From Candidatus Obscuribacteraceae bacterium (lineage in GTDB: Bacteria; Cyanobacteriota; Vampirovibrionia; Obscuribacterales; Obscuribacteraceae): 64,000 nucleotides of DNA. Each line of letters starts with the position of its first letter. Within the stretch, counting starts at the first letter, position 1. Below, piece by piece: positions 30,680 to 46,690 of this stretch. The translations under genes were made by a program, and so were the position numbers. Below the pieces are notes generated by a model that saw nothing but the letters and a program-made list of their open reading frames with translations, ran no database searches and was not told the origin of the DNA. The DNA lies in assembly GCA_044226015.1 (NCBI GenBank), contig JBGAHS010000005.1, forward strand, positions 384,001-448,000, given 5' to 3'.

Positions 30680-32713
30680 ATGAAATCCACATCAGGCGGT
30701 AAGAAAGCAGGAGCTGGCGGCTACGGAAAGAAACGTTCCAATGCGAGCAATTCTTATGGCAAAAAGACTGGTACCGCATCTGGTGGCTACGGAAGATCGC
30801 GTTCCAGCTCTGGTGAAGGTGGCGGCTCCTACGGGCGCAAGAGGAGTGACGAGGGCGGCGGATCCTCATACGGACGCAAGAGAAGTGAAGAGGGCGGCGG
30901 CTCCTCATACGGGCGCAAGAGAAGTGACGAAGGCGGCGGCTCCTCCTACGGGCGCAAGAGAGGCGATGAAGGCGGCGGCTCCTCATACGGTCGCAAGAGA
31001 AGTGACGAAGGTGGCAGCTCCTCCTACGGGCGCAAGAGAAGCGACGAAGGCGGCGGTTCCTCTTACGGACGCAAGAGAAGTGACGAAGGTGGCGGCTCCT
31101 CTTATGGGCGTAAGAGAAGTGATGAAGGCGGAAGCTCATACGGACGAAAGAGAAGCGACGAAGGCGGCAATTCCTCCTACGGAAGATCGCGTTCTAGCTC
31201 TGGCGAAGGCGGCAGTTCCTCCTACGGAAGATCGCGTTCTAGCTCTGGCGAAGGTGGCAGCTCCTCATACGGGCGCAAGAGAAGTGACGAGGGGGGCGGA
31301 TCCTCATACGGGCGCAAGAGAAGTGACGAGGGCGGCGGATCCTCTTACGGGCGCAAGAGAAGCGACGAGGGGGGCGGATCCTCATACGGACGAAAGAGAA
31401 GCGACGAAGGCGGAAGCTCATACGGACGCCAGAGAAGTGACGAAGGTGGCGGATCCTCATACGGACGAAAGAGAAGCGACGAAGGCGGAAGCTCATACGG
31501 ACGCCAAAGAAGTGACGAAGGCGGAAGCTCCTACGGAAGATCGCGTTCCGGCTCTGGTGAAGGTGGCTCCTCCTACGGGCGAAAGAGAAGCGATGAAGGT
31601 GGCAGCTCTTACGGACGGAGAAGCGACTCAGGTGGCAGTTCCTCATACGGACGTAAGCGAAGCGATGAAGGCGGCAGTTCGTCCTATGGCAGAGGACGAC
31701 GTGACGAAGGTGGTTATGGTAGGTCAGGATCGGGACCACGCTCTGGTTCGAGTTCAACATATGGAAGTAGAGAGAACCGCAGTTATGGTCGCAGCTACGA
31801 AGACAAAGGGCGCGCACCATCAGATGAAAAAGTTCAGCAAGAAACTGGAGCTCTAGAAGAAGAGCAACTCAGCGCTAATACTTCGAACGTTGAAGCTGAA
31901 GGGCAGATCGAAGAGGATTTCATCGAATCTCAATCGCTGACCGAAGAAGACTACGAATATGGCGATGACGACGAAGATTCTGATGCCGATGAGGGAAGTG
32001 CAGAAGTAGCTGAAGCAGCCGGCGCTGATTTTGTATCTGAAGTCGATGCGCAGTCGGAAGATGGTCTTGTTGGTGATGCCGGTGACTCTCAAGAATCCAC
32101 GAGAGACATTGAAGCTGCAGCTAATGAGTCTGGAGATGAGTCTGGCAACGAAGAGTCTGGCACCGACGACTCTGCTGACTCTACTCCGCGCAGCGAGAGC
32201 GCAGGACCTCGTCCATATGCTCAGCGTCTTTCCACCTCCAGCCCCTACAAGTCTCGTTCATCTGAAGACAGAGAAACTTACAGAGACGATCGCGGTTCGA
32301 GAGAGGAACGTGGCAATCGAGAAGAGCGCGGCTATCGTGAAGATCGCGGTTCAAGAGAAGATCGAGGCTATCGAGATGATCGCGATTCAAGAGAAGATCG
32401 AGGCTATCGAGATGATCGCGATTCAAGAGATGATCGTGGTCCACGTGGTGGCGCTGGTGGTGGCTTCAGAAAAGCTGAGCGCGAGATAAATGTTCACCTT
32501 GGAATAAGCCCTCGCTTGCTAGACCTGGCTAAAGAAATGGCCGAAGAGATGGGGCTTGACCTGCGAGAATATCTTGAGAGATGTTTAGTTCTCGCGCTCA
32601 AAGCTCATGCTGATAAACTCGGCTACGCCAAGACCACAACATACGTAACTGAGTTCACTAAAGAGCATACGAAGAAGCCGGAAACTCGTGTTTCCAAGAA
32701 GAAGCTCTATTAG
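30680..32713 (+). CDS. Low-complexity repeat protein with possible C-terminal ribbon-helix-helix domain
   Basis: About 23 SYGRKRSDEGGGS-type units, an acidic tract, RDDR/REDR repeats and a short folded tail. GGGAG RBS. Confidence 0.8.
   Translation: MKSTSGGKKAGAGGYGKKRSNASNSYGKKTGTASGGYGRSRSSSGEGGGSYGRKRSDEGGGSSYGRKRSEEGGGSSYGRKRSDEGGGSSYGRKRGDEGGGSSYGRKRSDEGGSSSYGRKRSDEGGGSSYGRKRSDEGGGSSYGRKRSDEGGSSYGRKRSDEGGNSSYGRSRSSSGEGGSSSYGRSRSSSGEGGSSSYGRKRSDEGGGSSYGRKRSDEGGGSSYGRKRSDEGGGSSYGRKRSDEGGSSYGRQRSDEGGGSSYGRKRSDEGGSSYGRQRSDEGGSSYGRSRSGSGEGGSSYGRKRSDEGGSSYGRRSDSGGSSSYGRKRSDEGGSSSYGRGRRDEGGYGRSGSGPRSGSSSTYGSRENRSYGRSYEDKGRAPSDEKVQQETGALEEEQLSANTSNVEAEGQIEEDFIESQSLTEEDYEYGDDDEDSDADEGSAEVAEAAGADFVSEVDAQSEDGLVGDAGDSQESTRDIEAAANESGDESGNEESGTDDSADSTPRSESAGPRPYAQRLSTSSPYKSRSSEDRETYRDDRGSREERGNREERGYREDRGSREDRGYRDDRDSREDRGYRDDRDSRDDRGPRGGAGGGFRKAEREINVHLGISPRLLDLAKEMAEEMGLDLREYLERCLVLALKAHADKLGYAKTTTYVTEFTKEHTKKPETRVSKKKLY
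30787..31716 (+). repeat. Coding tandem repeat, 36-45 bp units (mostly 39 bp)
   Basis: Recurrent TACGG(G/A)CGCAAGAGAAG(T/C)GACGA(A/G)GGCGGC with synonymous variation. Confidence 0.95.
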
Positions 32714-32985
32714 GAAAATACTTTGTCAAGGGTGGGAAGATTCACGCGTAGTTTGCTCAAAAGCTGCGACTGTTAAGGATTGTCATTGACCATTTAGGCT
32801 GAAGCAGCACCGAAGAAGCTTGATGGAATGCTCTCAACTCATGGTTGTCACGCATTTGCTGCTGAAATGCAGTGCTGCCTTGCCTTAACCGGAACTTTCA
32901 GATCTTGGAAATGTGATATAGTTCCTGCTGCGCAAATGTCTTGCGCAGTTTCGTTGTTGAGCTTTAGGCTCGTCAACCGTATTAA

Positions 32986-33432
32986 TTGAATCTGTTCCAG
33001 TCTATGACCAATCTTGCAACTCTAACTGAAGTAGAATTCGCCAGCGAGGATGAATTCAAAGCTATTCTTCCGGCGCTCGAGCGGAAGCAAGGTCCCGCTG
33101 ACCATGAGCTGGATGCTCCTCCTGGCGTAGCCGTGAAAATCAGCGACAGTGTTAGACCTGTTAACGCGAAGACTTCTGGCGAGCTACTGCAAATTCTTGG
33201 CGGACCGCATACATCTGACGCTCATTGGAGAATTGCATGGAGCGAGCTAAATGCCAGGGATGAGTCCGCTGATTCCACCGATACGTTCGTTGTGGGTGGG
33301 CAGCTGTTCTTGCTTTCCTTTATACTTCTTGTTCTCGTCAAAATTCTGTTTTTCAATGGACCTGCCGAGCCTGCCGCGGAGAATCAAATCTCCTCAGCAA
33401 AGTCCGAAGTTTTTCGGTGCATTCTTTTGTAA
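32986..33432 (+). CDS. Hypothetical membrane protein
   Basis: Acidic N-terminal part and one C-terminal TM helix; start uncertain. Confidence 0.5.
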   Translation: MNLFQSMTNLATLTEVEFASEDEFKAILPALERKQGPADHELDAPPGVAVKISDSVRPVNAKTSGELLQILGGPHTSDAHWRIAWSELNARDESADSTDTFVVGGQLFLLSFILLVLVKILFFNGPAEPAAENQISSAKSEVFRCILL

Positions 33433-34130
33433 GTCCTAGTTCAATATGGAGAAATGCGGTGAAGATTCTTAGTGTGATTGTTGCCTTGGGGCTGAGCTTA
33501 GTTAGCAATCCGATTTTTGCTGCAAGCCACGAGACATCTCCATATCAACACGGCGTCAACGCTTACTTGAAGGATGACTATAAATCAGCGCTGCCACATT
33601 TCACCGAGGCAGCAAAAACTGATGCTAAGAATCCAAAGGTTCATTATTACCTGGCACTGTGCTATCAGCAAATGGATGATGACAAAAATGCTGCAGCTGA
33701 ATATGAGCTTGCACTTGCTAACAGCAAGGATGCTGCATTTAAGGAGATCGTTGCCGAGCGACTTTTGAGGACGAAACGGCGGCTGGGAACTGCTCCTAAA
33801 CTTAGTTCCGAAGAAAGTGCTCCTCAAGTTGCAAAACATGAGCCTGTTCAAAAGGTCATCTGGTTTTCAACGAACTGGTGCAGTCATTGCAAGAAGTTCA
33901 AAACAGCATGGGAAGCTGCTAAGACAAAGTTCAATAACAAGCTAACGTTTGAACATCTCAATGCAGAAGATCCATCAGCCTGGAAGTCTGTCGAGACTTA
34001 CAAGCCTAAGGCGTATCCAACCCTCGTTTATCTCGACAAGAAAAACAAAGTTATAGAGAACTTCGCTTCTGCACCAAGTAGTGATGAGTTCATCAAGCAT
34101 CTCCAAGACCTTGGGGCTAAGGTCAACTGA
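33417..34130 (+). CDS. Secreted TPR + thioredoxin-domain protein
   Basis: Signal peptide, TPR (VHYYLALCY), WCSHC redox motif and YPT cis-Pro loop. The start is probably the GTG near 33459. Confidence 0.85.
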   Translation: MHSFVSPSSIWRNAVKILSVIVALGLSLVSNPIFAASHETSPYQHGVNAYLKDDYKSALPHFTEAAKTDAKNPKVHYYLALCYQQMDDDKNAAAEYELALANSKDAAFKEIVAERLLRTKRRLGTAPKLSSEESAPQVAKHEPVQKVIWFSTNWCSHCKKFKTAWEAAKTKFNNKLTFEHLNAEDPSAWKSVETYKPKAYPTLVYLDKKNKVIENFASAPSSDEFIKHLQDLGAKVN

Positions 34131-34184
34131 TCTCCATAATTTCTCCATAGTTTCCATTCTCATTACATAGGACTCTCCTAGAGT
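34131..34184 (+). promoter_or_regulatory. Putative BaeR-type tandem binding site and -10 element
   Basis: TCTCCATAA (34131) and TCTCCATAG (34142) at 11 bp spacing, a weaker TTTCCATTC at 34151, and TAGAGT at 34179. Confidence 0.65.
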
Positions 34185-34233
34185 ATGTGTATTGGGTCAT
34201 CGGTATGCCAGCAATTTATGAGGGTACTGACGA

Positions 34234-34506
34234 ATGGAAAAACAACTGGCTGAGCTTATGAAAACACTGAATAAGTCTCAGAAACTGGCAAAACTTGCTG
34301 TGAGCGAAAGCGGTTTCTTATTCGACCCTGAAACAGGGCAGAGTTTTACTCTGAATAAAACCGGGTTAGTCACGCTGAATCAGCTAAAGCGCGGTTCATC
34401 GATTGAAGAAACAGCAAGTTACTTATCTCAGAATTATATGGTCTCGGTCGAAGCTGCGATGAACAGCGTCGAGGCATTCATCTTGCAACTTGGGAGATAC
34501 CTATAA
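34234..34506 (+). CDS. PqqD-family / RiPP recognition element-like protein
   Basis: 90 aa; LAVSESGFLFDPETGQSFTLNKTG beta-hairpins followed by three helices, with Y.VS.E....V..FI..L. Confidence 0.85.
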   Translation: MEKQLAELMKTLNKSQKLAKLAVSESGFLFDPETGQSFTLNKTGLVTLNQLKRGSSIEETASYLSQNYMVSVEAAMNSVEAFILQLGRYL

Positions 34507-35612
34507 TGCGTAATTCCAAAGCGTGGAAAAATTATACGGTGGCGGTGACTGGAATGAACGCAAGTCCAGAAAGTCCTGGACCAGGTTTCGCAGTGGCAAG
34601 GTGTTTGAAAGAGCATCCAGAATTCGAAGGTCGAGTCATTGGGCTTGGATATGATGTTCTTGATGCGGGGCTTTATGCGCATCACATTTGCGATGCTGGC
34701 TACCTGGTGCCATACCCGTCGGCAGGACGCGATGCATTGCTAGAGCGACTTCGTGCTGTTCATGCTGTTGAGAAAATTGATGTGATAATTCCCTGTCTGG
34801 ATGCTGAACTTCAGAGCTTTATCGGTTTGAGAAAAGAACTTGAGTCCATGGGAATAAAGATGCTTATTCCGAGTCGAGATCAATTCAATCTACGTGCGAA
34901 GGACCAGCTGGGCAAGTTTTGTGAATCAATAGGTGTGCTTGCACCTGAGAGCAAGACAATTACGAATCCTGCATTCTTTGACGATTGCCACAATCAGGGG
35001 TGGGAATATCCCCTTATTGTAAAAGGCATCTTCTATGATGCGACCATCGCAAGGAATGCTTTTGAAGCCAAAGCCATCATGAATAAGCTGGTAGGGCAGT
35101 GGGGCTACCCGGTGCTCGTGCAGAAAATAGTTCAGGGCGATGAATTCGACTTGTCTGCAATCGGAGATGGGAAATGTCAGATGCTCGGTGCCGTGATGAT
35201 GCGCAAGCGAGCCCTGACAGAGAAAGGAAAAGCCTGGGCGGGAGTGACTGTTGCTGAGCCTGGAATAGCCGAAGTGGCTGGTAAAATCATTCGTGGACTA
35301 GCATGGAGTGGACCGTTTGAAGTAGAGGTCATGCGTACTGCCGACGAGAAGATTTACTTGATTGAGATTAACCCTCGCTTTCCGGCGTGGATTTATCTCA
35401 GTCATGCTGTCGGACGAAACTTGCCAGTGACTTTGCTCAAAGTCATTGCCGGTGAAACCGAACTAGATCTTGCAGAAGAGCGAACAGGAACATTTTTCAT
35501 ACGTCACGCACAGGAGTTGATTGTTAATCTGCCCGAGTTTGAGTCAATGTTGATCAACGGTAGTACAGGTGGATTCTTCGAAGATTCAGCACTGCACCGT
35601 TCAGCAAGTTAG
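34506..35612 (+). CDS. ATP-grasp domain ligase
   Basis: YPLIVKG, LVQKIVQGDEF, GPFEVE, YLIEINPRF. Start overlaps the PqqD stop (TAATG). Confidence 0.9.
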   Translation: MRNSKAWKNYTVAVTGMNASPESPGPGFAVARCLKEHPEFEGRVIGLGYDVLDAGLYAHHICDAGYLVPYPSAGRDALLERLRAVHAVEKIDVIIPCLDAELQSFIGLRKELESMGIKMLIPSRDQFNLRAKDQLGKFCESIGVLAPESKTITNPAFFDDCHNQGWEYPLIVKGIFYDATIARNAFEAKAIMNKLVGQWGYPVLVQKIVQGDEFDLSAIGDGKCQMLGAVMMRKRALTEKGKAWAGVTVAEPGIAEVAGKIIRGLAWSGPFEVEVMRTADEKIYLIEINPRFPAWIYLSHAVGRNLPVTLLKVIAGETELDLAEERTGTFFIRHAQELIVNLPEFESMLINGSTGGFFEDSALHRSAS

Positions 35613-35636
35613 AAAGTGGAAGAGGAGGAGGCATAA

Positions 35637-37097
35637 ATGGGTTTTGATCAAGATGGAAAAAAGGGGCTCTGGGAGCCACCATATATACAACCACATAAGT
35701 TAGGAGCAATAAACAAGTTTGGGCGCCGTCCGGTAAGAGACAACGTTGCAAGTGAACTCTACGGAGTTCCAGTTCAGGAGCTGATTGAGCGCTTTGGTTC
35801 ACCGCTCTTTGTTTTGAGTGAAGAGAAGCTGCGTGCCAATATTCGAAAAATCAAAAGCGCCTTTGAACAGAGATACACTCTTTCGCAGCATGGCTGGTCT
35901 TATAAGACAAACTATACCAGCGCCGTTTGCCGCATTATGGATCAAGAAGCTTCGCTGGCTGAAGTAGTGTCAAACTTTGAGTATGAGAAAGCTCGTGCTC
36001 TAGGTGTGCCTGGTCACCGCATCATTTTCAATGGACCGAATAAGCCTCGTGCAATTCTTGAGCGTGCTATTGCGGAAGGAGCCTTCATTCAAGCAGACCA
36101 TATGGACGAGTTGCGCCTTCTGCAGACCATAGCTGAAGAACAATCGCGCACTGTTGACATAGGAATAAGAATCAATTTTGACACCGGTTTTACTGAGCCC
36201 TGGAGCCGATTTGGTTTCAATCTTGAAAGCGGACAAGCTCGGGAAGCTGCAAAATTTATTTCGCGAAGCAATAATTTGAGGTTGACGGCTTTGCATTCGC
36301 ACATCGGCACTTTCGTGCTTGAGCCTCGAGCATACGCGGCTCAGGTAAAGATAATGTGCGACCTGATGCGCGAGCTTGAAGGTTTTGCAAACGTCGATAT
36401 TCAATGTCTTGATATAGGTGGAGGTTTTCCCTCTCTTAATGCGCTTCAGAGCATCTATTTGCCGCCAGAGCAGGTTGTGCCCGCAATTACTGAATACGCC
36501 GATGCAATCTGTGAATCGCTACAGCAAGGTATTCGTTATAGAAAGGAACAGGGAAAGGAGCTGCCACGCCTGGTATACGAAAGTGGACGAGCAATGGTAG
36601 ATGAATCTGAGTCATTGATCACATCTGTTGTCGGAACAAAGCGCCTTCCAGATGGACGCCGAGCCGCTATTCTAGATGCCGGTACGAATCTTTTGTTTAC
36701 TGCTTACTGGTACAACCATCCTATAAAACTCACCAAAGAAACTTATGGTGCTGAGGAGGAAACTGTATTGTACGGTCCCCTCTGTATGAATATTGACGTC
36801 GTTCGCAGCAGTGTTTGTTTACCTCCGCTCAATGCTGGAGATCAGCTGATCATAGGTAATGTTGGGGCATACAACAACACTCAGTGGCTTCAATTCATTG
36901 AATATCGACCGAACGTGGTTATGGTTTCTCAGAATGGTGAGTGTCACGTCATCAGATATGCTGAGGATCTATCAGTAATGATGTCGCAAGATTCCATTCC
37001 AGATCATTTGATGCCCAGGCAAATGAAGAAGCTGAAGGAAAGTGGACAGATAGCTATTCTCCGACCAAACTCATCGATGAAAAAGGTCAGGGAGTAA
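35637..37097 (+). CDS. Fold-III PLP-dependent decarboxylase (diaminopimelate/ornithine decarboxylase family)
   Basis: GSPLFV, SYKTN PLP lysine, FNGPNK, SRFG, LHSHIG, DIGGGF, ESGRAMV, GPLCMNID, NVGAY. Confidence 0.9.
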   Translation: MGFDQDGKKGLWEPPYIQPHKLGAINKFGRRPVRDNVASELYGVPVQELIERFGSPLFVLSEEKLRANIRKIKSAFEQRYTLSQHGWSYKTNYTSAVCRIMDQEASLAEVVSNFEYEKARALGVPGHRIIFNGPNKPRAILERAIAEGAFIQADHMDELRLLQTIAEEQSRTVDIGIRINFDTGFTEPWSRFGFNLESGQAREAAKFISRSNNLRLTALHSHIGTFVLEPRAYAAQVKIMCDLMRELEGFANVDIQCLDIGGGFPSLNALQSIYLPPEQVVPAITEYADAICESLQQGIRYRKEQGKELPRLVYESGRAMVDESESLITSVVGTKRLPDGRRAAILDAGTNLLFTAYWYNHPIKLTKETYGAEEETVLYGPLCMNIDVVRSSVCLPPLNAGDQLIIGNVGAYNNTQWLQFIEYRPNVVMVSQNGECHVIRYAEDLSVMMSQDSIPDHLMPRQMKKLKESGQIAILRPNSSMKKVRE

Positions 37098-37100
37098 AAG

Positions 37101-39257
37101 ATGTTTATTAGAAAAATAAATCAAGTGCTTGATGGGTACGGTTCATTTTTCGGTCTTTCGCATCCAGCCTCTCGCCTTTTGATTTTTCTTTGTGCGATTC
37201 TTAATCCCTTCTCTGGAGTTTGTGGAGTATTGGGCGCCATTTCTGTAGTCGCCTGGCGCTCTCTACTCCAGTTCAGAAGTGATACAGAACGAATTGAGAT
37301 AATCAACGGCATTCTTTTGGGCAGCTTGATGGGATCAATGTTTGCCTTCACTCCCGCATCTGTTGCATTGACCTTTTCTGGTGCACTGCTGGTAGTGCTG
37401 TTTAGCGCTGTGTTTTCGGATACTGTGGGAAAGATGTTTCGTCTGCCGCTACTGGGCTTACCCTATTCGGTGGTCGCATTTTTAATCTTGCCTGCAGCTG
37501 CGGCTCTGCATATACAGCATGTGGTTGTACCGGTTCCCCAATGGTTGTTGATTCCCTGTGATGCAGTTTTGCCTCTGGGCGCGATGTACTTCAATGGCAC
37601 TGGTGCTGGTGGCTTGCTCGTGGTGTTAGCATTTTTGCTTTCTTCACGTTACTTAGCTCTTCTTGCACTCTTGTCGAGTGTAGCATCATCCTTGTTTCTT
37701 CATGCGCTGGGTTTGCCTACTGACTCAATACTTTCGCTTGTAGCTCGCATGAACAGTGTTCTGGCTGCGTGTATCATTGGCGGATTGTTCGCTGTGCCTG
37801 GACGCAAGAGTATGGCTGTCTCTGTGGGGGCAGCTGTCTTCGCTGCCGGGCTTACGCTAGCGTTGAATCAGCTGCTATCGGTTTTGAGTCTGCCGGTGCT
37901 GGCGCTTCCGTTTGTGATTGTGACATACATCTCTATGCTCGTTTTCAATTCGCAAAGAGGACCTGCCTGGACTTATTTCTGGTTAAGCACTCCTGCTCTG
38001 CCAGAAAGCAGTCTGGAGTTTATTCAAGTTGCACAAGCTCGTGGAGTTGACTATCGCAGCATTGCCTTGAAGGCGCCGTTCAAAGGTACCTGGCAGGTAT
38101 ATCAGGGCTTTGCTGGAAAGCATACTCATAAAGGTGTCTGGCAATATGCTCTGGACTTTTTTCAAACGGAGGGCGAGAAGAGTTTCGCGGGTGACGGCGC
38201 CCTCTTGAATGATTATCATTGCTTCGGCAAGCCGGTTTTGTCGCCGGCTTATGGAACAATCGTTGAAGTTCAAAATGGAATTGCCGATAATGTACCTGGT
38301 GAAGTTGACACAATCAATAACTGGGGGAATTACATTCTGGTCAGGCTTGATTGTGGTGCCTATGTGATACTAGCCCACTTGAAGCAGGGCAGTGTTAGAG
38401 TAAATGTCGGTTCTCGAGTGATGCCTGGCGAAATGATTGCCAGCGTTGGAAACTCGGGACGTTCGCCACAGCCCCATCTGCATATGCATGTTCAGGAAAC
38501 GCAGTACATAGGTTCAAAGACGATTCCCTTCCACATCAATGGAATAATCAGGCATCTCGGCGACAGGAATGAATACAGCATGAAGGCAAGTCCTGAGGAA
38601 AATGAAGTTCTCAGTGTACCTGCATTGAACGAGGCTCTTAAGCACTCCTTGCGGTTTTGCGTTGGTAATCGCTATGAATTTGAACTTGAAGAAGCCGATG
38701 GCATAGAGCGCAAAGCTCATCTTGAAGTTAGCCTTGATCTCAATGGTCAGTTCTGGCTGAACAGCTCGTCAGGGGCAAGAGTGGCATTTAGCCAATCTGA
38801 TGAACTACTTGCTTTCTACAACCGACTTGGTCCAGATGATACTTTTCTCGACTCTTTTATTCTTGCTGTCAGCAGTACGCCGTTAGTCGAAGGTGCCATA
38901 AGCTGGCAAGACATGGTGCCACGTCGTTTATTAAACAGAAGCTTCTTGACTCGCCTTCAGCAGAATTTGCTTCATCCAATAAGTCCCTGTGCAACCACAA
39001 CATTTAATCGCCGATGGGATAGTACGCTAAAATTATGGCTGCAAACTGCAGAACATCGAGTTGGCGCGAGCAAATTTACGAGTACAGCTCAGATATGCGA
39101 GGCTCAAGGGTTGATGGAGTTCAGTCTTAGTTCGGATGAAAAGATGCTGATGCGGGCGAAGCTGATCACGCTGGGCTTGCGAGAAGATCTAGGCATACCC
39201 GAGTGGTCTTCGAAGCAGCTTTCTGCTCTACCTCAAGCAACGCGGGGAATGAATTGA
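37101..39257 (+). CDS. Urea-transporter-like membrane domain fused to an M23 peptidase domain
   Basis: About 10 TM helices with NGILLG, LPLLGLPY and LPVLALPF; then HTH....YALDF, WGNY, AHLKQGS, GNSGRS.QPHLH. Confidence 0.85.
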   Translation: MFIRKINQVLDGYGSFFGLSHPASRLLIFLCAILNPFSGVCGVLGAISVVAWRSLLQFRSDTERIEIINGILLGSLMGSMFAFTPASVALTFSGALLVVLFSAVFSDTVGKMFRLPLLGLPYSVVAFLILPAAAALHIQHVVVPVPQWLLIPCDAVLPLGAMYFNGTGAGGLLVVLAFLLSSRYLALLALLSSVASSLFLHALGLPTDSILSLVARMNSVLAACIIGGLFAVPGRKSMAVSVGAAVFAAGLTLALNQLLSVLSLPVLALPFVIVTYISMLVFNSQRGPAWTYFWLSTPALPESSLEFIQVAQARGVDYRSIALKAPFKGTWQVYQGFAGKHTHKGVWQYALDFFQTEGEKSFAGDGALLNDYHCFGKPVLSPAYGTIVEVQNGIADNVPGEVDTINNWGNYILVRLDCGAYVILAHLKQGSVRVNVGSRVMPGEMIASVGNSGRSPQPHLHMHVQETQYIGSKTIPFHINGIIRHLGDRNEYSMKASPEENEVLSVPALNEALKHSLRFCVGNRYEFELEEADGIERKAHLEVSLDLNGQFWLNSSSGARVAFSQSDELLAFYNRLGPDDTFLDSFILAVSSTPLVEGAISWQDMVPRRLLNRSFLTRLQQNLLHPISPCATTTFNRRWDSTLKLWLQTAEHRVGASKFTSTAQICEAQGLMEFSLSSDEKMLMRAKLITLGLREDLGIPEWSSKQLSALPQATRGMN

Positions 39258-40759
39258 AGATATCGCACAAGTTGCTGTTTATGTTTTTGCTAGTGGCCGG
39301 CTTTGTTGTCGGCCTCATTTCCGTGGCAATTCATTTCAGCATCGCAAACGGCTTCTCTTCGTATCTTGCCAAGTCAGAAATCAAAACTCTTGATTTGATT
39401 CCTTCGATTTTGGCTCAATCTTATGAATCTAGTAATGGCTGGAAGAGTTTTGCCGATCCCAAATTTATGGAGTCAGTGATAAGAGAGAACGAAAATCATA
39501 ATAGTCCTCATCCTGGACCCTTTCCTCCTGATGGAGGTCCGCAGGGGAGTGATTTACAGCTTTCAGCAGAGTTGCCGACATCTTCCGGAATGCTACCTGA
39601 GCAGAAGGAGGAGTTCCCGCCAGCTTTTGAACCACCACCATTTCCTCCGTTTCGAATAGAGCTTTTCAAGCGCATCGGCATTTTTGATGAGAAGAAACAG
39701 CTACTGTGGGGAGAGGCAAAAGCTTTCGACTCCCGAGCCAGCCTGCCTATCATAAGTAAGGGTCAAATCGTTGGCTATGTGAATCTGGCAGCACCAGAGA
39801 AATTGAGTAGAGACCTCGAAAATGATTTTGTCGCTGAACAGAACAAAGCACTTATGGTGGTGGCAGTGCTCTCCTTTGGCTTAGCCACCATTTCTGCAAT
39901 CGTTTTGTCTCGCGATATTGTGAATGCAATTCAAGAATTGGTTCTTGCGACCCGCAGAATGAGTGCTGGTGATCTTTCGCATCCCCTGGATATTGTGAGA
40001 ACCGATGAGTTAGGACAATTAGCGAAAGACCTGAATTTTTTAGCTGCTACGCTCGACCAACATGATAGAGCTCATAAACAGTGGATCGCGGATACTTCTC
40101 ATGAGTTGCGAACACCGGTCGCTGTTTTACGAGCGCAGGTTGAGGCAATACAAGATGGAATTCAGGAACCTAATGAAAAGACAGTATCTATTCTTCACGA
40201 CGAAGTAATGACTCTGGGCAAGTTGATAGACGACTTGTACGATTTGGCAAGATATGATGTGAAGCAGCTGTTTTTTCAATTCGGACCTGTCGAGATTGGC
40301 AGTTTGTTGGCCGAAACAATTGATTCCTTCTCAGAGCGATTTGAAAAGAAAAGGATTCAAGTGCAGGTGTCTGAGCTTTCAAACACTAAGTTAGTAGTTA
40401 ATGCTGATGCTGCACGTTTGAAACAACTATTTGCAAATATCTTGGAGAATTCATTGAGGTATACAAATGAGGGAGGGCGATTAAAAATTCTCTGTAGTAT
40501 GGTGGCAGATTGGGTAAAGGTGTCATTCGATGACTCTGAACCCGGAGTGTCCGAAGATGCGCTTTTGAAAATATTTGAACGATTTTACAGGGTAGAGTCA
40601 TCACGTTCGAGAGTTTATGGTGGAAGTGGACTTGGGCTGTCCATTTCAAAAACAATCGCGGAAGGACATGGAGGAGTGCTGAAAGCTTCTCCCTCGGAAT
40701 TAGGTGGGTTGCGTTTGGAATTTAGTATTCCTGTAGCAGAGGTGAGCAAGAATGGCTGA
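39254..40759 (+). CDS. BaeS-like sensor histidine kinase
   Basis: Two TM helices, HAMP (DELGQLA), ADTSHELRTP..AIQDG, NILENSLRYT, GSGLGL. TTG start overlaps the upstream TGA. Confidence 0.9.
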   Translation: MKISHKLLFMFLLVAGFVVGLISVAIHFSIANGFSSYLAKSEIKTLDLIPSILAQSYESSNGWKSFADPKFMESVIRENENHNSPHPGPFPPDGGPQGSDLQLSAELPTSSGMLPEQKEEFPPAFEPPPFPPFRIELFKRIGIFDEKKQLLWGEAKAFDSRASLPIISKGQIVGYVNLAAPEKLSRDLENDFVAEQNKALMVVAVLSFGLATISAIVLSRDIVNAIQELVLATRRMSAGDLSHPLDIVRTDELGQLAKDLNFLAATLDQHDRAHKQWIADTSHELRTPVAVLRAQVEAIQDGIQEPNEKTVSILHDEVMTLGKLIDDLYDLARYDVKQLFFQFGPVEIGSLLAETIDSFSERFEKKRIQVQVSELSNTKLVVNADAARLKQLFANILENSLRYTNEGGRLKILCSMVADWVKVSFDDSEPGVSEDALLKIFERFYRVESSRSRVYGGSGLGLSISKTIAEGHGGVLKASPSELGGLRLEFSIPVAEVSKNG

Positions 40760-41435
40760 AGGGGAAGAGCACATTTTGATTGTGGAGGACGAAACTACAA
40801 TCGCTCAGATTTTACGAGAGTATTTAAGCAAAAATGGCTATAGAAGCACTCACTTGTCAGATGGACTCAATGTGATTGAAACTATAAAGTCTGATCCACC
40901 AGATTTGGTGCTTCTCGACCTTATGCTGCCTGGCAAGGATGGTCTGGAGGTCTGCAAGGAAATCAGGAAGTCTTCGTCCGTTCCTATCTTCATGCTCACT
41001 GCAAAAGTGGAAGAGATAGATCGTCTGTTAGGACTGGAATTGGGTGCGGACGATTATATTTGTAAGCCATTTAGCCCGCGTGAAGTAGTAGCTCGAATCA
41101 AAGCATTATTCCGTCGTATGAAGCAAGCCTCACATCCTGAACCCAAGAAAACTGGTTTTGAAATTGACGAAGCAGAAATGCGAATTTTCTATCAAGGTCA
41201 GCGACTTGATTTGACGCCAACTGAGTTTCGGCTCCTGCGATTGTTCATAAGTAATCCTGGGCGCGTTTATTCGAGGTCACAGTTGCTTGATTTGTGTTAC
41301 CAGCAAGAGCAGCTCATCATCGACAGGGTAATTGATAGCCACATCAAAAACCTTCGTAAGAAGATCGCAAAAGTATTAGACGAGCTTGAAGTGATTCACG
41401 CAGTGTATGGAATTGGATATCGGTTCGAGATGTAA
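40752..41435 (+). CDS. BaeR-like OmpR-family response regulator
   Basis: LDLMLPG, TAKVEEIDRLLGLELGADDYICKPFSPREVVAR, DRVIDSHIKNLR. Confidence 0.92.
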   Translation: MAEGEEHILIVEDETTIAQILREYLSKNGYRSTHLSDGLNVIETIKSDPPDLVLLDLMLPGKDGLEVCKEIRKSSSVPIFMLTAKVEEIDRLLGLELGADDYICKPFSPREVVARIKALFRRMKQASHPEPKKTGFEIDEAEMRIFYQGQRLDLTPTEFRLLRLFISNPGRVYSRSQLLDLCYQQEQLIIDRVIDSHIKNLRKKIAKVLDELEVIHAVYGIGYRFEM

Positions 41436-41462
41436 GCTATCGAATCCGTTAATATACCTGAA

Positions 41463-41508
41463 GCCGCCAGGATGGCGGCGCTCCCAGGCTAGTGGGCGGC
41501 GCTCCCAC
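41463..41508. repeat. REP-like palindromic element
   Basis: GCCGCCA-gga-TGGCGGC-GCTCCCAGG plus a second GGCGGCGCTCCCA; related copy at 56528. Confidence 0.55.
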
Positions 41509-41643
41509 GGACTTGAGCAAATGGTCAAATTGAATTGCATCTTTATGGAATCTTGATGCCACAGGACAAAAGGCACTTCCCGCTTATCCTGGCAGGTTTT
41601 CAGCCATCAGGTTCCATAAGTGCGAATCTATGGTTAGCATTCC

Positions 41644-41684
41644 TTTGCGCTTTATTTATACCTATCTTTGCGCCTTCTTTATGC
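41644..41684 (+). promoter_or_regulatory. Putative KdpE binding array
   Basis: TTTGCGC, TTTATAC, TTTGCGC, TTTATGC at 11/12/11 bp spacing upstream of kdpF; resembles the E. coli TTTATA..TTTACA half-sites. Confidence 0.6.
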
Positions 41685-41916
41685 GTGGCAAAACAATATT
41701 CTCACCTTCTTTATGTGTAAGGGGCTTAAATAGATATTGTTTTCCCCCTTTATTTAAGTGCTCTATGGGCGAATCTGAAGTCTTTTGCATTTTGTCAATT
41801 TCCTTTTCACTGATTGCCTTGAAAACAACGCAAGATTGTCTTGACCGAGTTGCCGATGCCATCGTGAAATCGCGAAACAAATCTGAGTGCCAGACTCAAA
41901 AAAGCAGGTGACTGGA

Positions 41917-42006
41917 ATGAACATTTTTGATGTGATTTATCCCACTCTAATGGTTTTGTTCTTTGCTGGTTGTTCTGCATACGTGAAAGCTTGTGAGCGA
42001 CTTTAG
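41917..42006 (+). CDS. Small hydrophobic peptide upstream of kdpF
   Basis: MNIFDVIYPTLMVLFFAGCSAYVKACERL, 29 aa, AGGTG RBS; below the track cutoff. Confidence 0.7.
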   Translation: MNIFDVIYPTLMVLFFAGCSAYVKACERL

Positions 42007-42017
42007 TCGAGCTTGCC

Positions 42018-42107
42018 ATGTCTTTTGATAACACCATTTGTCTTTCTTTTGCGCTGGCGCTGTCAGTGTATCTGTCGTACGCGCTATTGTTTCCCCATAA
42101 ATTTTAG
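42018..42107 (+). CDS. kdpF: K+-transporting ATPase subunit F
   Basis: MSFDNTICLSFALALSVYLSYALLFPHKF matches the KdpF YLxYALxxPExF pattern; immediately before kdpA. Confidence 0.85.
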   Translation: MSFDNTICLSFALALSVYLSYALLFPHKF

Positions 42108-42109
42108 TT

Positions 42110-43909
42110 GTGAGTCTTATGACCTCTTTTGGATGCTTGCAAATACTTTGTTTTTGTCTTGCTTTGATAATCGCCAGCAAACCACTTGGCTCGTATATGT
42201 ATCGTGTGTTTGAAGGTGCCTCTGGGTTAGAGTTCCGAATTCTTGGTCCCTTAGAGAAACTTTGCTACAAGCTGTTTGGCGTTGATGCGGAAGAGGAAAT
42301 GAGTTGGAGAGAATACGCTCTAGCTCTTTTAGCTTTCTCATTAGTTGGTGGGCTCTTCACTTATTTTGTGTTGCGACTACAAGGCTTCTTGCCTCTGAAT
42401 CCCATGCATTTTTCGACATCCAACGCGCCTTCCTTTGCTAGTTCTATGTCGCCCGACCTGGCGTTCAATACGGCAGTGTCGTTTTTGACGAATACTAACT
42501 GGCAAAACTATTCTGGCGAGAGCACACTTTCCTATTTGAGCCAGATGCTTGGTCTTTCTTATCATAATTGGATTTCAGCAGCTGTGGGAATGGTTGCGTG
42601 TGTTGCTCTTTCTAGGGGCTTTTGCAGGCATTCGGCAAGTACAATTGGGAACTTTTGGAAGGACCTAACTCGAAGCCTGCTCTATATCTTTCTTCCTATT
42701 CTTTTCGTTTATTCACTCTTTCTTGTGTCTCAAGGCGTAATTCAAAATTTTGAGCCTTATACGGTGGTGAAGACTGTTGAAGGCGCATCACAGGTGCTTC
42801 CTCAAGGTCCCGTGGCTACACAAGAAGCAGTCAAAATGCTGGGTGTAAACGGGGGAGGTTTTTTTAACGCGAATAGTGCACACCCGTTTGAAAATCCGAC
42901 TCCAATTTCTAACTTCGTACAGATGCTCTCGATCTTTCTCTTGCCTTCTGCGATGACTTTTATGTTCGGAAAAATGGTGAAAGACACCCGGCAGGGTTGG
43001 GCGCTTTTCGCTGTGATGTTTGCCTTGTTCTTGGCTGGAACACTGTTTTGCTACAACGCTGAGTCATACCCTTCTTCCCAATTTGAGAAGAACAAGATAG
43101 AGACTTCTACAGCTGTACTTGGGGATCTTGGTGGCAACATGGAGGGGAAGGAGCTTCGATTTGGACTTGCAAATTCAGCGCTATTTGCCTGCGTCACAAC
43201 TGATGCTAGTTGTGGGGCAGTAAATTGTATGCATGATTCCCTAACTCCAATTGGTGGTCTAGTAACTTTATTGAACATTCAATTGGGAGAAATTGTATTT
43301 GGTGGTGTAGGCTCAGGCTTATACGGAATGCTGGTATTTGCAGTGATTACTGTTTTCATAGCAGGGTTGATGGTTGGAAGAACGCCTGAATACCTCGGTA
43401 AGAAAATTGAGCAAAAGGACGTGAAGATGTGCATGCTATTTGTGTTGATTGCATGCTTTTCGATTCTCTTTTTTAGTGCTGTTGCTGCTGTTACTGTGTT
43501 GCCACAGAACAGCGTATTGAACGCCTTTGGTCCGCTCTACAGAAATACAGGCAACGCGGGACCTCACGGACTCTCTGAACTGATTTATTGTTTTTCGTCA
43601 GCCACTGGAAACAATGGCTCTGCATTTGCCGGACTTTCTGCAAATACACCGTTTTACAATGTCGCAATTGCAATCGCGATGTTGCTCGGACGTTTTCTCA
43701 TGATGGTGCCGGTTCTGGCTCTGGCGGGAACACTTGCTTCAAAGAAATACACGCCACCCACACCAGGTACTTTTCCTACTCATGGTCCGCTGTTTGTTGT
43801 CCTGCTCATAAGCATCATTTTGATCGTTGGGGCGCTGACATTCTTTCCTGCTTTGACATTGGGCCCGATAGCAGAACATTTTCTGATGCAGTCAAATCGA
43901 CTCTTTTAA
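42110..43909 (+). CDS. kdpA: K+-transporting ATPase subunit A
   Basis: [51 protein letters not shown]. The start may be ATG 42119. Confidence 0.97.
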
Positions 43910-43919
43910 GGACAGAACA

Positions 43920-46061
43920 ATGGTTGAAACAATTTCAATTACTCCTCAGACCGAGAAAAAGAAGAAGGCTATTCTCAATAACAGGGACGTTCTTAAACGT
44001 GCTGTTTTTGAAGCTTTTAGAAAGCTGCACCCGGCTAACATGGCAAAGAACCCCGTCATGATGGTAGTTGAGGTGGGGTCATTCTTAACAACGGCTTTCT
44101 TTGTTCGAGACTGTGTACAACATGCTAGCTCTGCACCGCTTTTATTTGAGGGACAGATTTGTTTCTGGCTCTGGAGTACTGTTTTATTTGCAAACTTCTC
44201 CGAAGCTATTGCCGAGGGGCGTGGCAAAGCCCAAGCCGATACTTTGCGAAAGAGCCGTAAGGACACAACGGCAAGGCGAGAAATTAAGAAAGGACAGTAT
44301 GAAACTGTAGCGGCTACACAACTTCAGAAGAACGATATCGTTTACGTCGAGGCAGGAGAAATAATACCGAGTGACGGAGACGTCATCGAAGGAGTCGCTA
44401 GCGTCGACGAAAGCGCTATAACCGGTGAATCAGCCCCGGTTATTCGCGAGAGCGGTGGCGATCGAAGCGCCGTCACAGGTGGTACCACAGTTTTGTCTGA
44501 TTGGCTGAGAGTCAAAATCACTGTTCAGCCAGGTGAGACTTTTATGGATCGTATGATCTCTCTGGTTGAAGGCGCAGAACGGCAGAAAACGCCTAACGAA
44601 ATAGCGCTCAATATACTTCTTGCGGGTTTGACTCTAGTCTTTCTGCTTGCGGTGGTGACTCTTTTGCCGTTTTCCCTATTCTCAGTGAGGGAAGCTCAGT
44701 CTGGCTCCGCTCCTGACTCGTTCTCACTAATAGCTCTGTTAGTTTGTTTGATTCCCACGACAATAGGTGGGCTTCTGTCTGCAATTGGAATCGCCGGAAT
44801 GGACAGAGTCTTGCAACATAACGTACTTGCAATGAGTGGTAAAGCTATCGAAGCAGCCGGCGATGTAGATACACTCTTGCTCGATAAGACAGGAACCATC
44901 ACTCTGGGAAATCGGCAGGCGGTAGAGTTTATTCCAGCGCCTGGTGTGAGCATAAATGTTTTGGCTGATGCTGCACAGCTTTCTTCACTTACTGATGAGA
45001 CACCAGAAGGACGCTCTATCGTTGCTCTGGCTAAGAACCAATTCAATCTTCGTGAAAGACAGCTGGCCTCAATAGATGCCGAATTTATCTCATTTAGCGC
45101 TCAGACCAGAATGAGTGGTGTGAATGTTGAAGGCAAAATGATAAGAAAAGGTGCGGCTGATAGTATCTTCAAATTTGTTAAAGAGTTGGGTTTAGCTATT
45201 CCTCGCGAAGTAGAGATGGAAGTAGCCAGGGTTGCTCAAGCGGGCGGAACGCCGCTGGTGACAGCTGACAATCAAAAAGGTGTGTTGGGCGTCATCTATT
45301 TGAAGGATGTCGTCAAAGGTGGAATGAAGGAACGGTTTTCACAGCTTCGTGAGATGGGCATTCGCACCATAATGATTACCGGAGACAATCCGCTAACTGC
45401 CGCTGCAATCGCTTCAGAAGCTGGTGTAGATGACTTTCTTGCTGAAGCAACACCTGAAAACAAAATGCAATTGATAAGGCGCGAACAGGCTGGGGGAAGG
45501 CTGGTCGCTATGACGGGCGACGGTACAAATGATGCTCCTGCACTGGCTGCAGCCGATGTGGGGTTAGCGATGAATTCGGGAACCCAGGCTGCCAAAGAGG
45601 CAGGCAACATGATTGACCTTGATTCTAACCCTACGAAGCTAATCGAGGTTGTACAAATTGGAAAGCAATTGTTGATGACTCGTGGTGCTTTAACTACATT
45701 TTCAATTGCAAATGATGTAGCAAAATATTTCGCTATTTTGCCAGCTATGTTTGCTGCTATTTATGTTCTTCCGGAGACGAATAAAGGTGCTCTCTGGGCG
45801 CTGAATATCATGGGACTTCACTCTCCTCAGTCTGCTATTTTGGCTGCGGTAATTTTTAATGCTTTGATTATCGTCGCTCTCATACCACTTGCTCTGAGAG
45901 GAGTGGCTTATAAGCCCATGAGCGCCGAATCACTCTTGTGGAGGAACCTTCTAGTTTACGGGTTGGGAGGACTGATTGTTCCTTTTCCAGGAATTTGGTT
46001 TCTTGACCAGTGTCTTGTAATTTTCGGACTGGCACCGGCAACGGTGGCGGGAGGTGTCTAA
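43920..46061 (+). CDS. kdpB: K+-transporting ATPase subunit B
   Basis: [29 protein letters not shown]. Confidence 0.98.
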
Positions 46062-46681
46062 TGTTTCGTCATTTGCTTCCAGCAATAAGGGCAACTATTT
46101 TAATAGCATTACTGACTGGTATCGTTTTTCCAATCTCTGTGACTATCTTGAGCACTGTATTTTTCAATGAGCAAGCCAAAGGTTCATTGATTCGAAATGC
46201 GACTGGCGAAGTCATTGGGTCAAGTCTTATTGGACAAGGATTTTCGCGTCCTGAGTATTTTCATCCGCGTCCGTCGGCGGCAGGCTCTGGTTATGCCGGC
46301 GAGGCGTCTGCAGGCAGTAACTTGGGACCCACGTCGCGAAAGTTGTTTGAAGGGCTAACGGATGACCCCGCAACCGCTGCCAATGAGTCGTTTGATGGCG
46401 TCAAACAATTGAGTGACACCTATAGAACGGAAAATCGTCTTTCTGAAAGTGAGAAAGTTCCGGTCGATGCTGTCAGCAGGTCTGCGTCAGGATTAGATCC
46501 ACACATTTCCTTTGCCAATGCACTCTTTCAATCTCGCCGGGTATCGGAGTGTCGTAAAGTACCAATTGAAAAAATTCGAGCGTTAGTAGAAAGCCATCTG
46601 GAAGGGAGGCAACTAGGTTTTATTGGCGAACCTCGAATAAATGTTCTTCAGTTAAATTTGGCGCTTGATCAGGCAAGGTGA
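46061..46681 (+). CDS. kdpC: K+-transporting ATPase subunit C
   Basis: GSSLIGQ, YFHPRPSA, SNLGP, SASGLDPHIS, INVLQLNLALD. ATG overlaps the kdpB TAA. Confidence 0.96.
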   Translation: MFRHLLPAIRATILIALLTGIVFPISVTILSTVFFNEQAKGSLIRNATGEVIGSSLIGQGFSRPEYFHPRPSAAGSGYAGEASAGSNLGPTSRKLFEGLTDDPATAANESFDGVKQLSDTYRTENRLSESEKVPVDAVSRSASGLDPHISFANALFQSRRVSECRKVPIEKIRALVESHLEGRQLGFIGEPRINVLQLNLALDQAR

Positions 46682-46690
46682 TTATAGAAA

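Follow-up and report, generated by a model that had tools for sequence, protein, structure and literature searches.

A conserved operon pairing a discrete RiPP recognition element with a likely ligand on its own PLP decarboxylase in Candidatus Obscuribacteraceae

Results and Discussion

The window analysed here, a 64,000-nt stretch of the genome of a Candidatus Obscuribacteraceae bacterium (GenBank assembly GCA_044226015.1; 8.19 Mb in 13 contigs), corresponds to positions 384,001-448,000 of the forward strand of contig JBGAHS010000005.1; coordinates without a contig label are window positions, position 1 being the first letter. It carries a tightly packed operon of six plus-strand genes coding for a PqqD-family discrete recognition element (RRE) of the type found with peptides that are made on ribosomes and modified after translation (RiPPs), an ATP-grasp ligase, a fold-III pyridoxal phosphate (PLP) decarboxylase, a fusion of a urea transporter (UT) with an M23 peptidase, a BaeS-like sensor kinase and a BaeR-like response regulator. 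The ligand of the RRE is likely the N-terminus of the decarboxylase itself, which bears a motif resembling the leader sequences of RiPP precursors. The gene order, this tag, its covariation with the RRE, the conserved catalytic residues, the loss of two pore threonines from the UT domain and a regulatory box shared with a tetratricopeptide repeat (TPR) gene can all be read directly from the sequences compared. The pathway is predicted to make an amine-bearing amide and to pass it out through the modified urea channel, and we tentatively favour a scheme in which ligation, decarboxylation and release proceed as a tethered assembly line.

A leader-like tag at the decarboxylase N-terminus

The RRE gene (34234-34506, +; 90 aa; Pfam PqqD 3.7e-9) had been likened in the earlier note on this DNA to the acyl carrier BtrI, a likeness that does not hold, as its profile is closest to the lasso peptide B1 proteins (TbiB1, 4.4e-11; TfuB1, 3e-8). 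In solved structures discrete RREs bind a [Y/W]xxPx[L/V/I] leader motif (PMC6784204, PMC13381572): the Tyr is held by an Asp, the kink at the Pro is fixed by an Asn, and four residues beyond the Asp there is a Phe (PMC13381572). The window PqqD retains the Asn (N41) and the Phe (F82) and has S78 at the position of the Asp. The matching motif lies within the N-terminal arm of the decarboxylase (residues 1-30; 35637-35726, +) and reads W12-x-x-P15-x-I17 (35670-35687), with Lys27 further along (35715-35717), so that the window pairs a Trp12 tag with Ser78 in PqqD. The arm is about 30 residues long and is unstructured in a monomer model (pLDDT 46-49, against 84 overall).

A tag of the form [YWF]xxPx[LIVM] is present at the decarboxylase N-terminus in all 69 anchored cluster cases, and four further cluster decarboxylases that could not be anchored show it by eye; the background is 70 of 4485 genome ORFs (1.6%) and none of 83 ATP-grasp N-termini. 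Fifteen residues on from the start of the tag there is a Lys, the equivalent of Lys27, in every one of the 109 regularly spaced tags. Most lower-scoring decarboxylase representatives lack the tag, and a closer paralog that has no PqqD beside it (in locus L115) also has no tag-bearing arm.

The identity of the first tag residue covaries with the RRE. Among 112 unique tag-PqqD pairs, all 59 Tyr tags are partnered by a PqqD with the Asp and none of the four Phe tags is, whilst the Trp tags occur with Asp in 20 cases, with Ser in 21 and with another residue in 8. There are 16 columns conserved in Tyr-type PqqDs, and the Asp column is the only one that changes in all of the Phe cases. It is very probable that the RRE binds the decarboxylase tag, and the covariation supports this indirectly.

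The resemblance to lasso-type RREs (TfuB1, TbiB1, PbaB1, LppB) thus extends to the RRE family, the leader motif, the Asn, the Phe and the Tyr-binding Asp, including the relaxation of the Asp in Trp lineages. In contrast to those systems, the motif here begins an enzyme of 450-490 residues rather than a short precursor, and there is no recurring B2 leader protease or C cyclase, neither being among the six genes nor recognised among recurring neighbours. No separate precursor is apparent near the cluster either: no conserved small-ORF family is present among cluster neighbours of at least 60 aa. Of the 80 loci, 27 have motif-bearing ORFs of 20-80 aa upstream, but these show no evident kinship with one another, and there is none in the vicinity of the window operon (31500-34240 or 41436-42100). 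A search for PqqD fusions of greater length gave none at 1e-8, which is weak evidence.

TetR-PqqD fusions are encoded at L009:7168-7986, L011:2949-3746 and L023:1497-2297, and L011 has a separate operon PqqD as well. The arm-less paralog of L115 (L115:5742-11092, genome G056) is part of a different cluster, together with a MetRS-like protein, a GntR regulator and another ATP-grasp protein.

Conservation and spread of the four-gene core

The metagenome loci compared are the best 80 of 565, chosen by ATP-grasp alignment alone. Among those that leave room for the gene in question, PqqD is situated 5' of the ATP-grasp gene in 73 of 73, the decarboxylase 3' of it in 66 of 66, and UT-M23 is next in order in 48 of 49. 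The arrangement is not a matter of chance, because the order recurs in loci picked by the ATP-grasp protein alone, and the co-occurrence of the four enzyme genes across phyla, which the earlier note had mentioned, is borne out.

The two closest named loci, both Candidatus Obscuribacterales, have the same six genes. Within the window's own order the decarboxylase is found in 44 of 107 genomes; all 19 cluster loci examined contain the four-gene core, and in 17 the kinase and regulator follow behind it. Among the metagenome loci the kinase is directly 3' of UT-M23 in only one of 80, and the upstream regulators differ between lineages (TetR-PqqD fusions, LytTR pairs, AraC, ECF sigma). In the 28 metagenome loci with 2.5 kb behind UT-M23, an outer-membrane barrel-like gene is present in 24 and an exported TPR gene in 26; the barrel resembles those of YaiO, OmpG and Slam (TM about 0.67), and a search of the window's genome gave neither type of outer-membrane barrel. 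By these neighbour counts the core consists of four genes, which the envelope partners usually accompany, and BaeSR is an addition of this lineage; the regulators, counted as part of the system in the earlier note, do not belong to the core.

In a sample of another phylum the decarboxylase is present in 26 of 301 genomes, with PqqD in all 25 besides the centre genome. The sample from the window's own phylum has a full-strength match in only three of 301 genomes, with 38 further matches near 1e-63 to 1e-69 that are LysA-like. A single-protein scan of the genome contigs gave only two true loci, and L003 and L004 correspond to CarB and were left out of the set of cluster loci. Among the recurring neighbour families there is no catabolic or cell-wall gene, and a plasmid search gave no match. 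One locus of the window's order (L116, genome G058) has the cassette of the other lineage: its tag is of the Tyr type, there are two TPR genes, and both the box and BaeSR are missing; transfer and binning error are both candidate explanations.

Annotations routinely name the homologs lysA, carbamoyl-phosphate synthase and urea transporter. In the open-access literature covered there is no paper on the cluster beyond a fragment in the soil clone βLR16, and the main text of the RRE-Finder paper (PMC7470986) has no mention of ATP-grasp, decarboxylase, M23 or urea.

The ATP-grasp ligase and the decarboxylase

The ligase (34506-35612, +; 368 aa; Pfam ATPgrasp_Ter 6e-9) belongs to the PRK12767/ATPgrasp_Ter/PylC-like group, in which it has the EINPR motif unbroken; a patch of basic residues (R130, K132, K234, K240, K242, R333) is conserved, each of them in at least 120 of 121 sequences. 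It is without a close solved relative (2PN1, 1e-15; CarB, 5e-12; PylC, 1e-3), and matches to Ddl and Van enzymes are at 1.7e-5 or weaker. Carbamoyl-phosphate synthases and biotin carboxylases have a Glu or an Arg-Ser after EINPR; neither is present here and there is a single ATP-grasp domain, and these chemistries were rejected.

The decarboxylase (35637-37097, +; 486 aa; Pfam Orn_Arg_deC_N 6.8e-30) has N-citrylornithine decarboxylase as its closest solved relative, both by sequence (7.3e-57, compared with 2.9e-35 for LysA and 1.6e-22 for BtrK) and by fold (7KH2). The PLP residues K90, H220, E315, R318 and C383 are each intact in 37 of 37 sequences. In all 37 a Met (M384) follows the catalytic Cys, replacing the acid that binds the free distal amine, and in the alignment to the solved relative I386 and Q416 take the places of the His and Arg for which citrate binding has been proposed, again in 37 of 37; the roles of the acid, His and Arg are those described in PMC7857480. 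From these replacements we infer that the substrate is an amino acid whose side chain is uncharged and probably linked through an amide. The general logic of a pathway that ligates and decarboxylates, as put forward in the earlier note, appears to be supported.

Three known systems share parts of this pair of enzymes. The FigA/FigC (FslA/FslC) rhizoferrin route gives the best sequence and fold match and has all of the PLP residues and the Cys-Met, but the window enzyme scores 221.5 bits against an FslC cut-off of 500, the citrate-binding H357 and R387 of FigC are Ile and Gln here, the partner enzyme is an ATP-grasp protein rather than an NIS synthetase, and the N-terminal arm is extra. In butirosin biosynthesis the ATP-grasp enzyme BtrJ and the PLP decarboxylase BtrK act on the carrier BtrI. 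A similar pair, CtaD and CtaF, operates on CtaE in the closthioamide pathway, where an ATP-grasp enzyme and a PLP decarboxylase help to build poly-beta-alanine on a carrier protein (PMC7898593, as far as its available text goes). In contrast to both, no acyl or peptidyl carrier recurs in the present loci, where the small gene has the PqqD fold; the match to BtrK is much weaker than that to FigC, and the RRE, UT-M23 and envelope parts are without counterparts in those pathways.

The UT-M23 membrane protein

The fourth gene (37101-39257, +; 718 aa; Pfam UT 1e-26, M23 1.4e-13) codes for a protein that is modelled as three domains (pLDDT 91.7, pTM 0.87). Residues 1-314 form a complete ten-helix UT fold (Z 35; root-mean-square deviation 2.3-2.5 over about 300 residues), as in dvUT, UT-A and UT-B; the urea-transporter score is 47.8 bits against a cut-off of 274.6. 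Both of the pore threonines of the LTxPF motifs, which the available text of PMC10541013 describes among the UT pore residues, are lost: position 119 is Gly in 78, Ser in 36 and Thr in one of 120 sequences, and position 268 is Ala in 117 and Thr in none of 120. The fold is otherwise whole, and the protein differs from the urea transporters in this loss and in its fusion to an M23 and a beta-sheet domain.

The M23 domain matches wall hydrolases (Z 14) and its zinc site is intact, with H343, D352, H426 and H459 present in 120 of 120 sequences and H461 in 119. The termini of UT proteins are cytoplasmic. Because the whole of the UT fold precedes the M23 domain, and the loop after the last UT helix is rich in Lys and Arg and is marked as inside by the positive-inside bias, the M23 domain is predicted to face the cytoplasm; the suggestion that a wall-facing M23 changes stem peptides fares poorly on this topology. 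The C-terminal curved beta-sheet (514-696) bears a moderate resemblance to folds of lipid carriers, with vitellogenin, ApoB and LolA as its matches (Z 8-11); these are a lead only, and the Atlas comparison of this domain gave only leads scoring below 0.9.

Regulation by a BaeR-like regulator

A box of tandem BaeR-type repeats with an 11-bp period (34131-34170, +), the predicted site of the operon's own regulator, starts directly after the stop codon of the upstream gene. Its first repeat is exactly TCTNCANAA, the BaeR consensus as given in the available text of PMC3799227, and it agrees with the longer consensus at 13 of 18 positions. A predicted -10 hexamer (34179-34184, +) is of the form TAxxxT in all 13 aligned sites, at a fixed distance 3' of the box. 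A consensus sigma-70 scan found no promoter and no -35 consensus at the operon start, and we infer that the promoter is activator-dependent.

The kinase (39254-40759, +; 501 aa, TTG start; HAMP/HisKA/HATPase) has two hydrophobic stretches, predicted to span the membrane, and its closest NCBIfam model is BaeS (NF012163; 382 bits, cut-off 500); the OmpR-family regulator (40752-41435, +; 227 aa; REC/Trans_reg_C) is closest to BaeR (302 bits, cut-off 380). In L117-L120, L128, L132 and L133 the kinase gene has roughly 400 bp less space than it does in the window, which suggests that the periplasmic sensor domain has been lost there.

When the genome was scanned with a long matrix built from 12 relatives, with the window excluded, the window box was the top site at 44.4 bits, followed by sites of 33.6 and 29.6 and then 17.5 bits. 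The box is 5' of PqqD in 11 of the 19 loci of the order and in L001. In another seven of the 19 the best site is 5' of an extra first gene (a TPR gene in six); for the most part the spacing of these sites is shifted and they score poorly with the long matrix. L116 is the only one with no box. The 79 other metagenome loci have long-matrix scores of at most 16.

At G000:C1:810958-811862 (locus L191) the 29.6-bit site is followed by a gene for a 253-aa exported TPR protein (C1:811101-811862) that is homologous to the in-operon TPR of relatives; the operon is thus not quite the self-contained unit it had been taken for. Of the order's 107 genomes, 40 encode this exported TPR family, and every one of these is among the 44 with the decarboxylase; a shorter matrix scores above 17 bits upstream of 26 of 30 TPR copies, as against none of 2000 random segments. 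The regulator is found in 45 of the 107 genomes, 40 of which have the decarboxylase (40 of 44). Related genomes in these counts are not independent of one another. BaeSR-type control, an element of the earlier note, is accordingly backed by a conserved BaeR-type box, and to judge from these sites the BaeR-like regulator in all probability activates both the operon and the TPR gene through it. The operon is likely to be switched on by envelope stress. A paralog of the TPR gene on contig C3 (353776-354411, -) has a degenerate box. The 33.6-bit site (C8:105209, -; L192) lies between a gene for an XRE-type helix-turn-helix protein and a divergent gene for a Gln-rich exported protein, and has no -10 at the usual distance.

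Among published material, the nearest is the clone βLR16, whose UT-M23 is 60% identical to that of the window (P0012). Its BaeR-like regulator raised expression of E. coli mdtA, mdtB and acrD 11-13-fold, and the UT-M23 peptidase alone produced no change in carbenicillin resistance in E. coli; the authors state that the host function of both proteins is not known, and the three genes upstream are not described in the available portion of the paper (PMC4364456). It is the only report on any part of the system in the literature covered, in keeping with the view that no function had been published. The window pair is like E. coli BaeSR in its best family matches and in the fit of the box to the BaeR consensus, and unlike it in scoring below both cut-offs and in that its predicted targets are the operon and a TPR gene instead of an efflux pump.

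A possible tethered pathway

In the assembly line that we tentatively favour, the RRE would grip the decarboxylase's own arm and present it to the ATP-grasp ligase. The ligase might then join the side-chain carboxyl of Glu or Asp to the amine of Lys27, leaving the alpha-amino acid part free for PLP, such that decarboxylation would yield a 4-aminobutyryl or beta-alanyl unit; the cycle could perhaps repeat, as on the closthioamide carrier protein. The M23 domain might cut the amide product free at the inner mouth of the pore, and the widened UT pore might pass it to the periplasmic TPR protein and then, in lineages that have one, to the barrel. Because no barrel was found in the window's genome, the product may stop in the periplasm here. 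Its purpose could be protection of the envelope. A more specific version, which would be a ribosome-derived line of a novel type in which the enzyme's own tail is the precursor and repeated Glu or Asp loading gives oligo(4-aminobutyrate) or oligo(beta-alanine), secreted under envelope stress via a protease-capped urea-channel fold, we regard as unlikely.

Secretion systems such as PgaA and AlgKE combine TPR and beta-barrel components. The inner-membrane unit, the exported TPR protein and, in relatives, the YaiO/OmpG/Slam-like barrel recall this synthase-dependent secretion of exopolymers, from which the present system differs in having no glycosyltransferase, a UT fold as its inner-membrane unit and no barrel found in the genome.

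Several observations weigh against the tethered assembly line and the claims on which it builds. Lys27 is replaced (by T, P, R, H, S or I) in about a dozen divergent tag-bearing representatives (P0243, P0245, P0283 and P0292 are Lys-less examples) and also in cluster locus L027, and it was rejected as universally essential. It is likewise Arg in the 871-aa ATP-grasp-decarboxylase fusions P0248 and P0398, which keep the tag internally, and the fusion has a split form (P0396/P0397) in the same 90% cluster. The closest solved enzyme uses a free N-acyl-ornithine, whose amide runs the opposite way to that of a glutamyl-lysine tether. All four pairs of a Phe tag with a non-Asp PqqD are in one small clade that has one Tyr/Asp member, and they stand for perhaps two events. 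A phage contig (L190) has PqqD, ATP-grasp and decarboxylase genes and no tag, and the box on C1 that scores 29.6 bits by the long matrix scores only 13.6 by the short one.

Alternative explanations

An alternative that is quite possible, if on the doubtful side, is that the tag is only a handle by which the RRE clamps decarboxylase and ligase together, with free small molecules as the substrates. PylC acylates the side-chain amine of lysine, and a ligase acting in the same manner on ornithine or lysine would lead, after decarboxylation, to N-acyl-putrescine or N-acyl-cadaverine, which the M23 domain would trim or recycle at the channel before export. This agrees with the weak PylC-likeness of the ligase, with a closest solved decarboxylase, by sequence and fold, that acts on N-citrylornithine and shares the Cys-Met, with the persistence of the tag beyond Lys27 in divergent homologs and with the existence of ligase-decarboxylase fusions, which count in favour of the tethered assembly line as well. 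It leaves unexplained, however, why a low-confidence arm should have the Lys in all 109 regular tags, and why an intact amide hydrolase should be fixed to the exit pore.

Flow in the opposite direction is improbable. UT pores are passive and two-way, and a hydrolase at the inner mouth would suit import, with the barrel and TPR protein capturing an external peptide or amide, the channel importing it, M23 cutting it, and the ligase and decarboxylase detoxifying or converting the parts. The likeness of the barrel to OmpG porins is no weaker than that to YaiO or Slam, and BaeR regulons handle toxic compounds (PMC4364456). Against this, a ligase that spends ATP and an RRE with its tag are both hallmarks of biosynthesis, no catabolic genes recur near the cluster, and the search of this genome gave no barrel.

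We consider it highly improbable that the system is a signalling relay in which a ligand is sensed by the altered UT domain, M23 cleaves the decarboxylase arm or strips it of a modification, and the RRE responds to the condition of the arm by controlling enzyme activity or transcription. The loss of the pore threonines, the TetR-PqqD fusions of L009, L011 and L023 and the many different upstream regulators of other lineages could be read this way, but every catalytic residue of the two enzymes, ligase and decarboxylase, is strictly conserved, and the barrel and TPR protein suggest that material passes through.

Lower still we place an alteration of peptidoglycan stem peptides or their precursors. 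Such a role would fit the match of the M23 fold to wall hydrolases and the envelope-stress type of control; it does not sit well with the predicted cytoplasmic location of M23, the distance of the ligase from Ddl and Van enzymes, the lack of a recurring cell-wall gene near the cluster, or the unchanged carbenicillin resistance of E. coli carrying a relative's UT-M23 alone.

Finally, an ordinary LysA with incidental neighbours can be dismissed despite the name 'diaminopimelate decarboxylase' that sources give to many homologs, since the enzyme scores 214.4 bits by the LysA model TIGR01048 (cut-off 297.9), has Met rather than an acid after the Cys (37 of 37) and a fixed synteny, and is not, as had been raised, the genome's only LysA, a true lysA on contig C11 scoring 456 bits.

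Implications

On the features tested, the system falls outside the lasso, LysA, FigC, Btr/Cta and UT groups while resembling parts of each, and none of the operon's enzymes reaches an NCBIfam equivalog cut-off. RREs serve as markers for finding RiPP precursors, and here the RRE ligand is apparently a tag on a pathway enzyme. If so, an enzyme-borne tag would explain some RRE clusters that have no precursor, and the RRE and tag together would be a portable module for tethering proteins. The known roles of this channel family would be extended by a UT fold from which the urea filter is gone and to which a protease has been joined. With 44 of 107 genomes in the order and 26 of 301 in the other phylum sampled, the system is widespread, and it lends itself to experiment: the box offers a handle for induction, the tag-Asp pair defines exact mutants, and the question of the product is directly testable.

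Operon layout and flanking features

The description of six co-oriented genes with overlapping or near-zero junctions matches the ORFs of the window at all five junctions, and Pfam backs each label. PqqD and ATP-grasp overlap at TAATG (34504-34508), a 24-bp gap with a strong Shine-Dalgarno sequence separates ATP-grasp from the decarboxylase, and a 3-bp gap precedes UT-M23, which overlaps the kinase at TTGA (39254-39257); the kinase and regulator overlap by 8 bp (40752-40759).

Immediately upstream there is a gene for an exported TPR-thioredoxin protein (33417-34130), one of many paralogs, which ends one base 5' of the box. It was rejected as a member of the operon, as the box and -10 come after its stop codon and it adjoins the cluster in only a few loci, all close relatives. 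Just 3' of the regulator (41461-41507) is a GC-rich hairpin-like stretch with a 13-bp direct repeat, resembling a repetitive extragenic palindrome or a terminator. Directly downstream, from 42110 to 49393 and onward, is a potassium uptake operon whose genes we take, from sequence likeness, to be kdpABCD-like.

The phage contig mentioned above (L190:3444-5922) has no UT-M23, and the nearby genes code for PolA, a DUF4406 protein and a dATP/dGTP diphosphohydrolase; these phage genes are possibly involved in DNA-base modification. Further upstream in the window, a 677-aa ORF (30680-32713) contains long Gly/Ser/Arg/Tyr repeats and an acidic tract, and by composition is an RNA-binding or condensate-type low-complexity protein.

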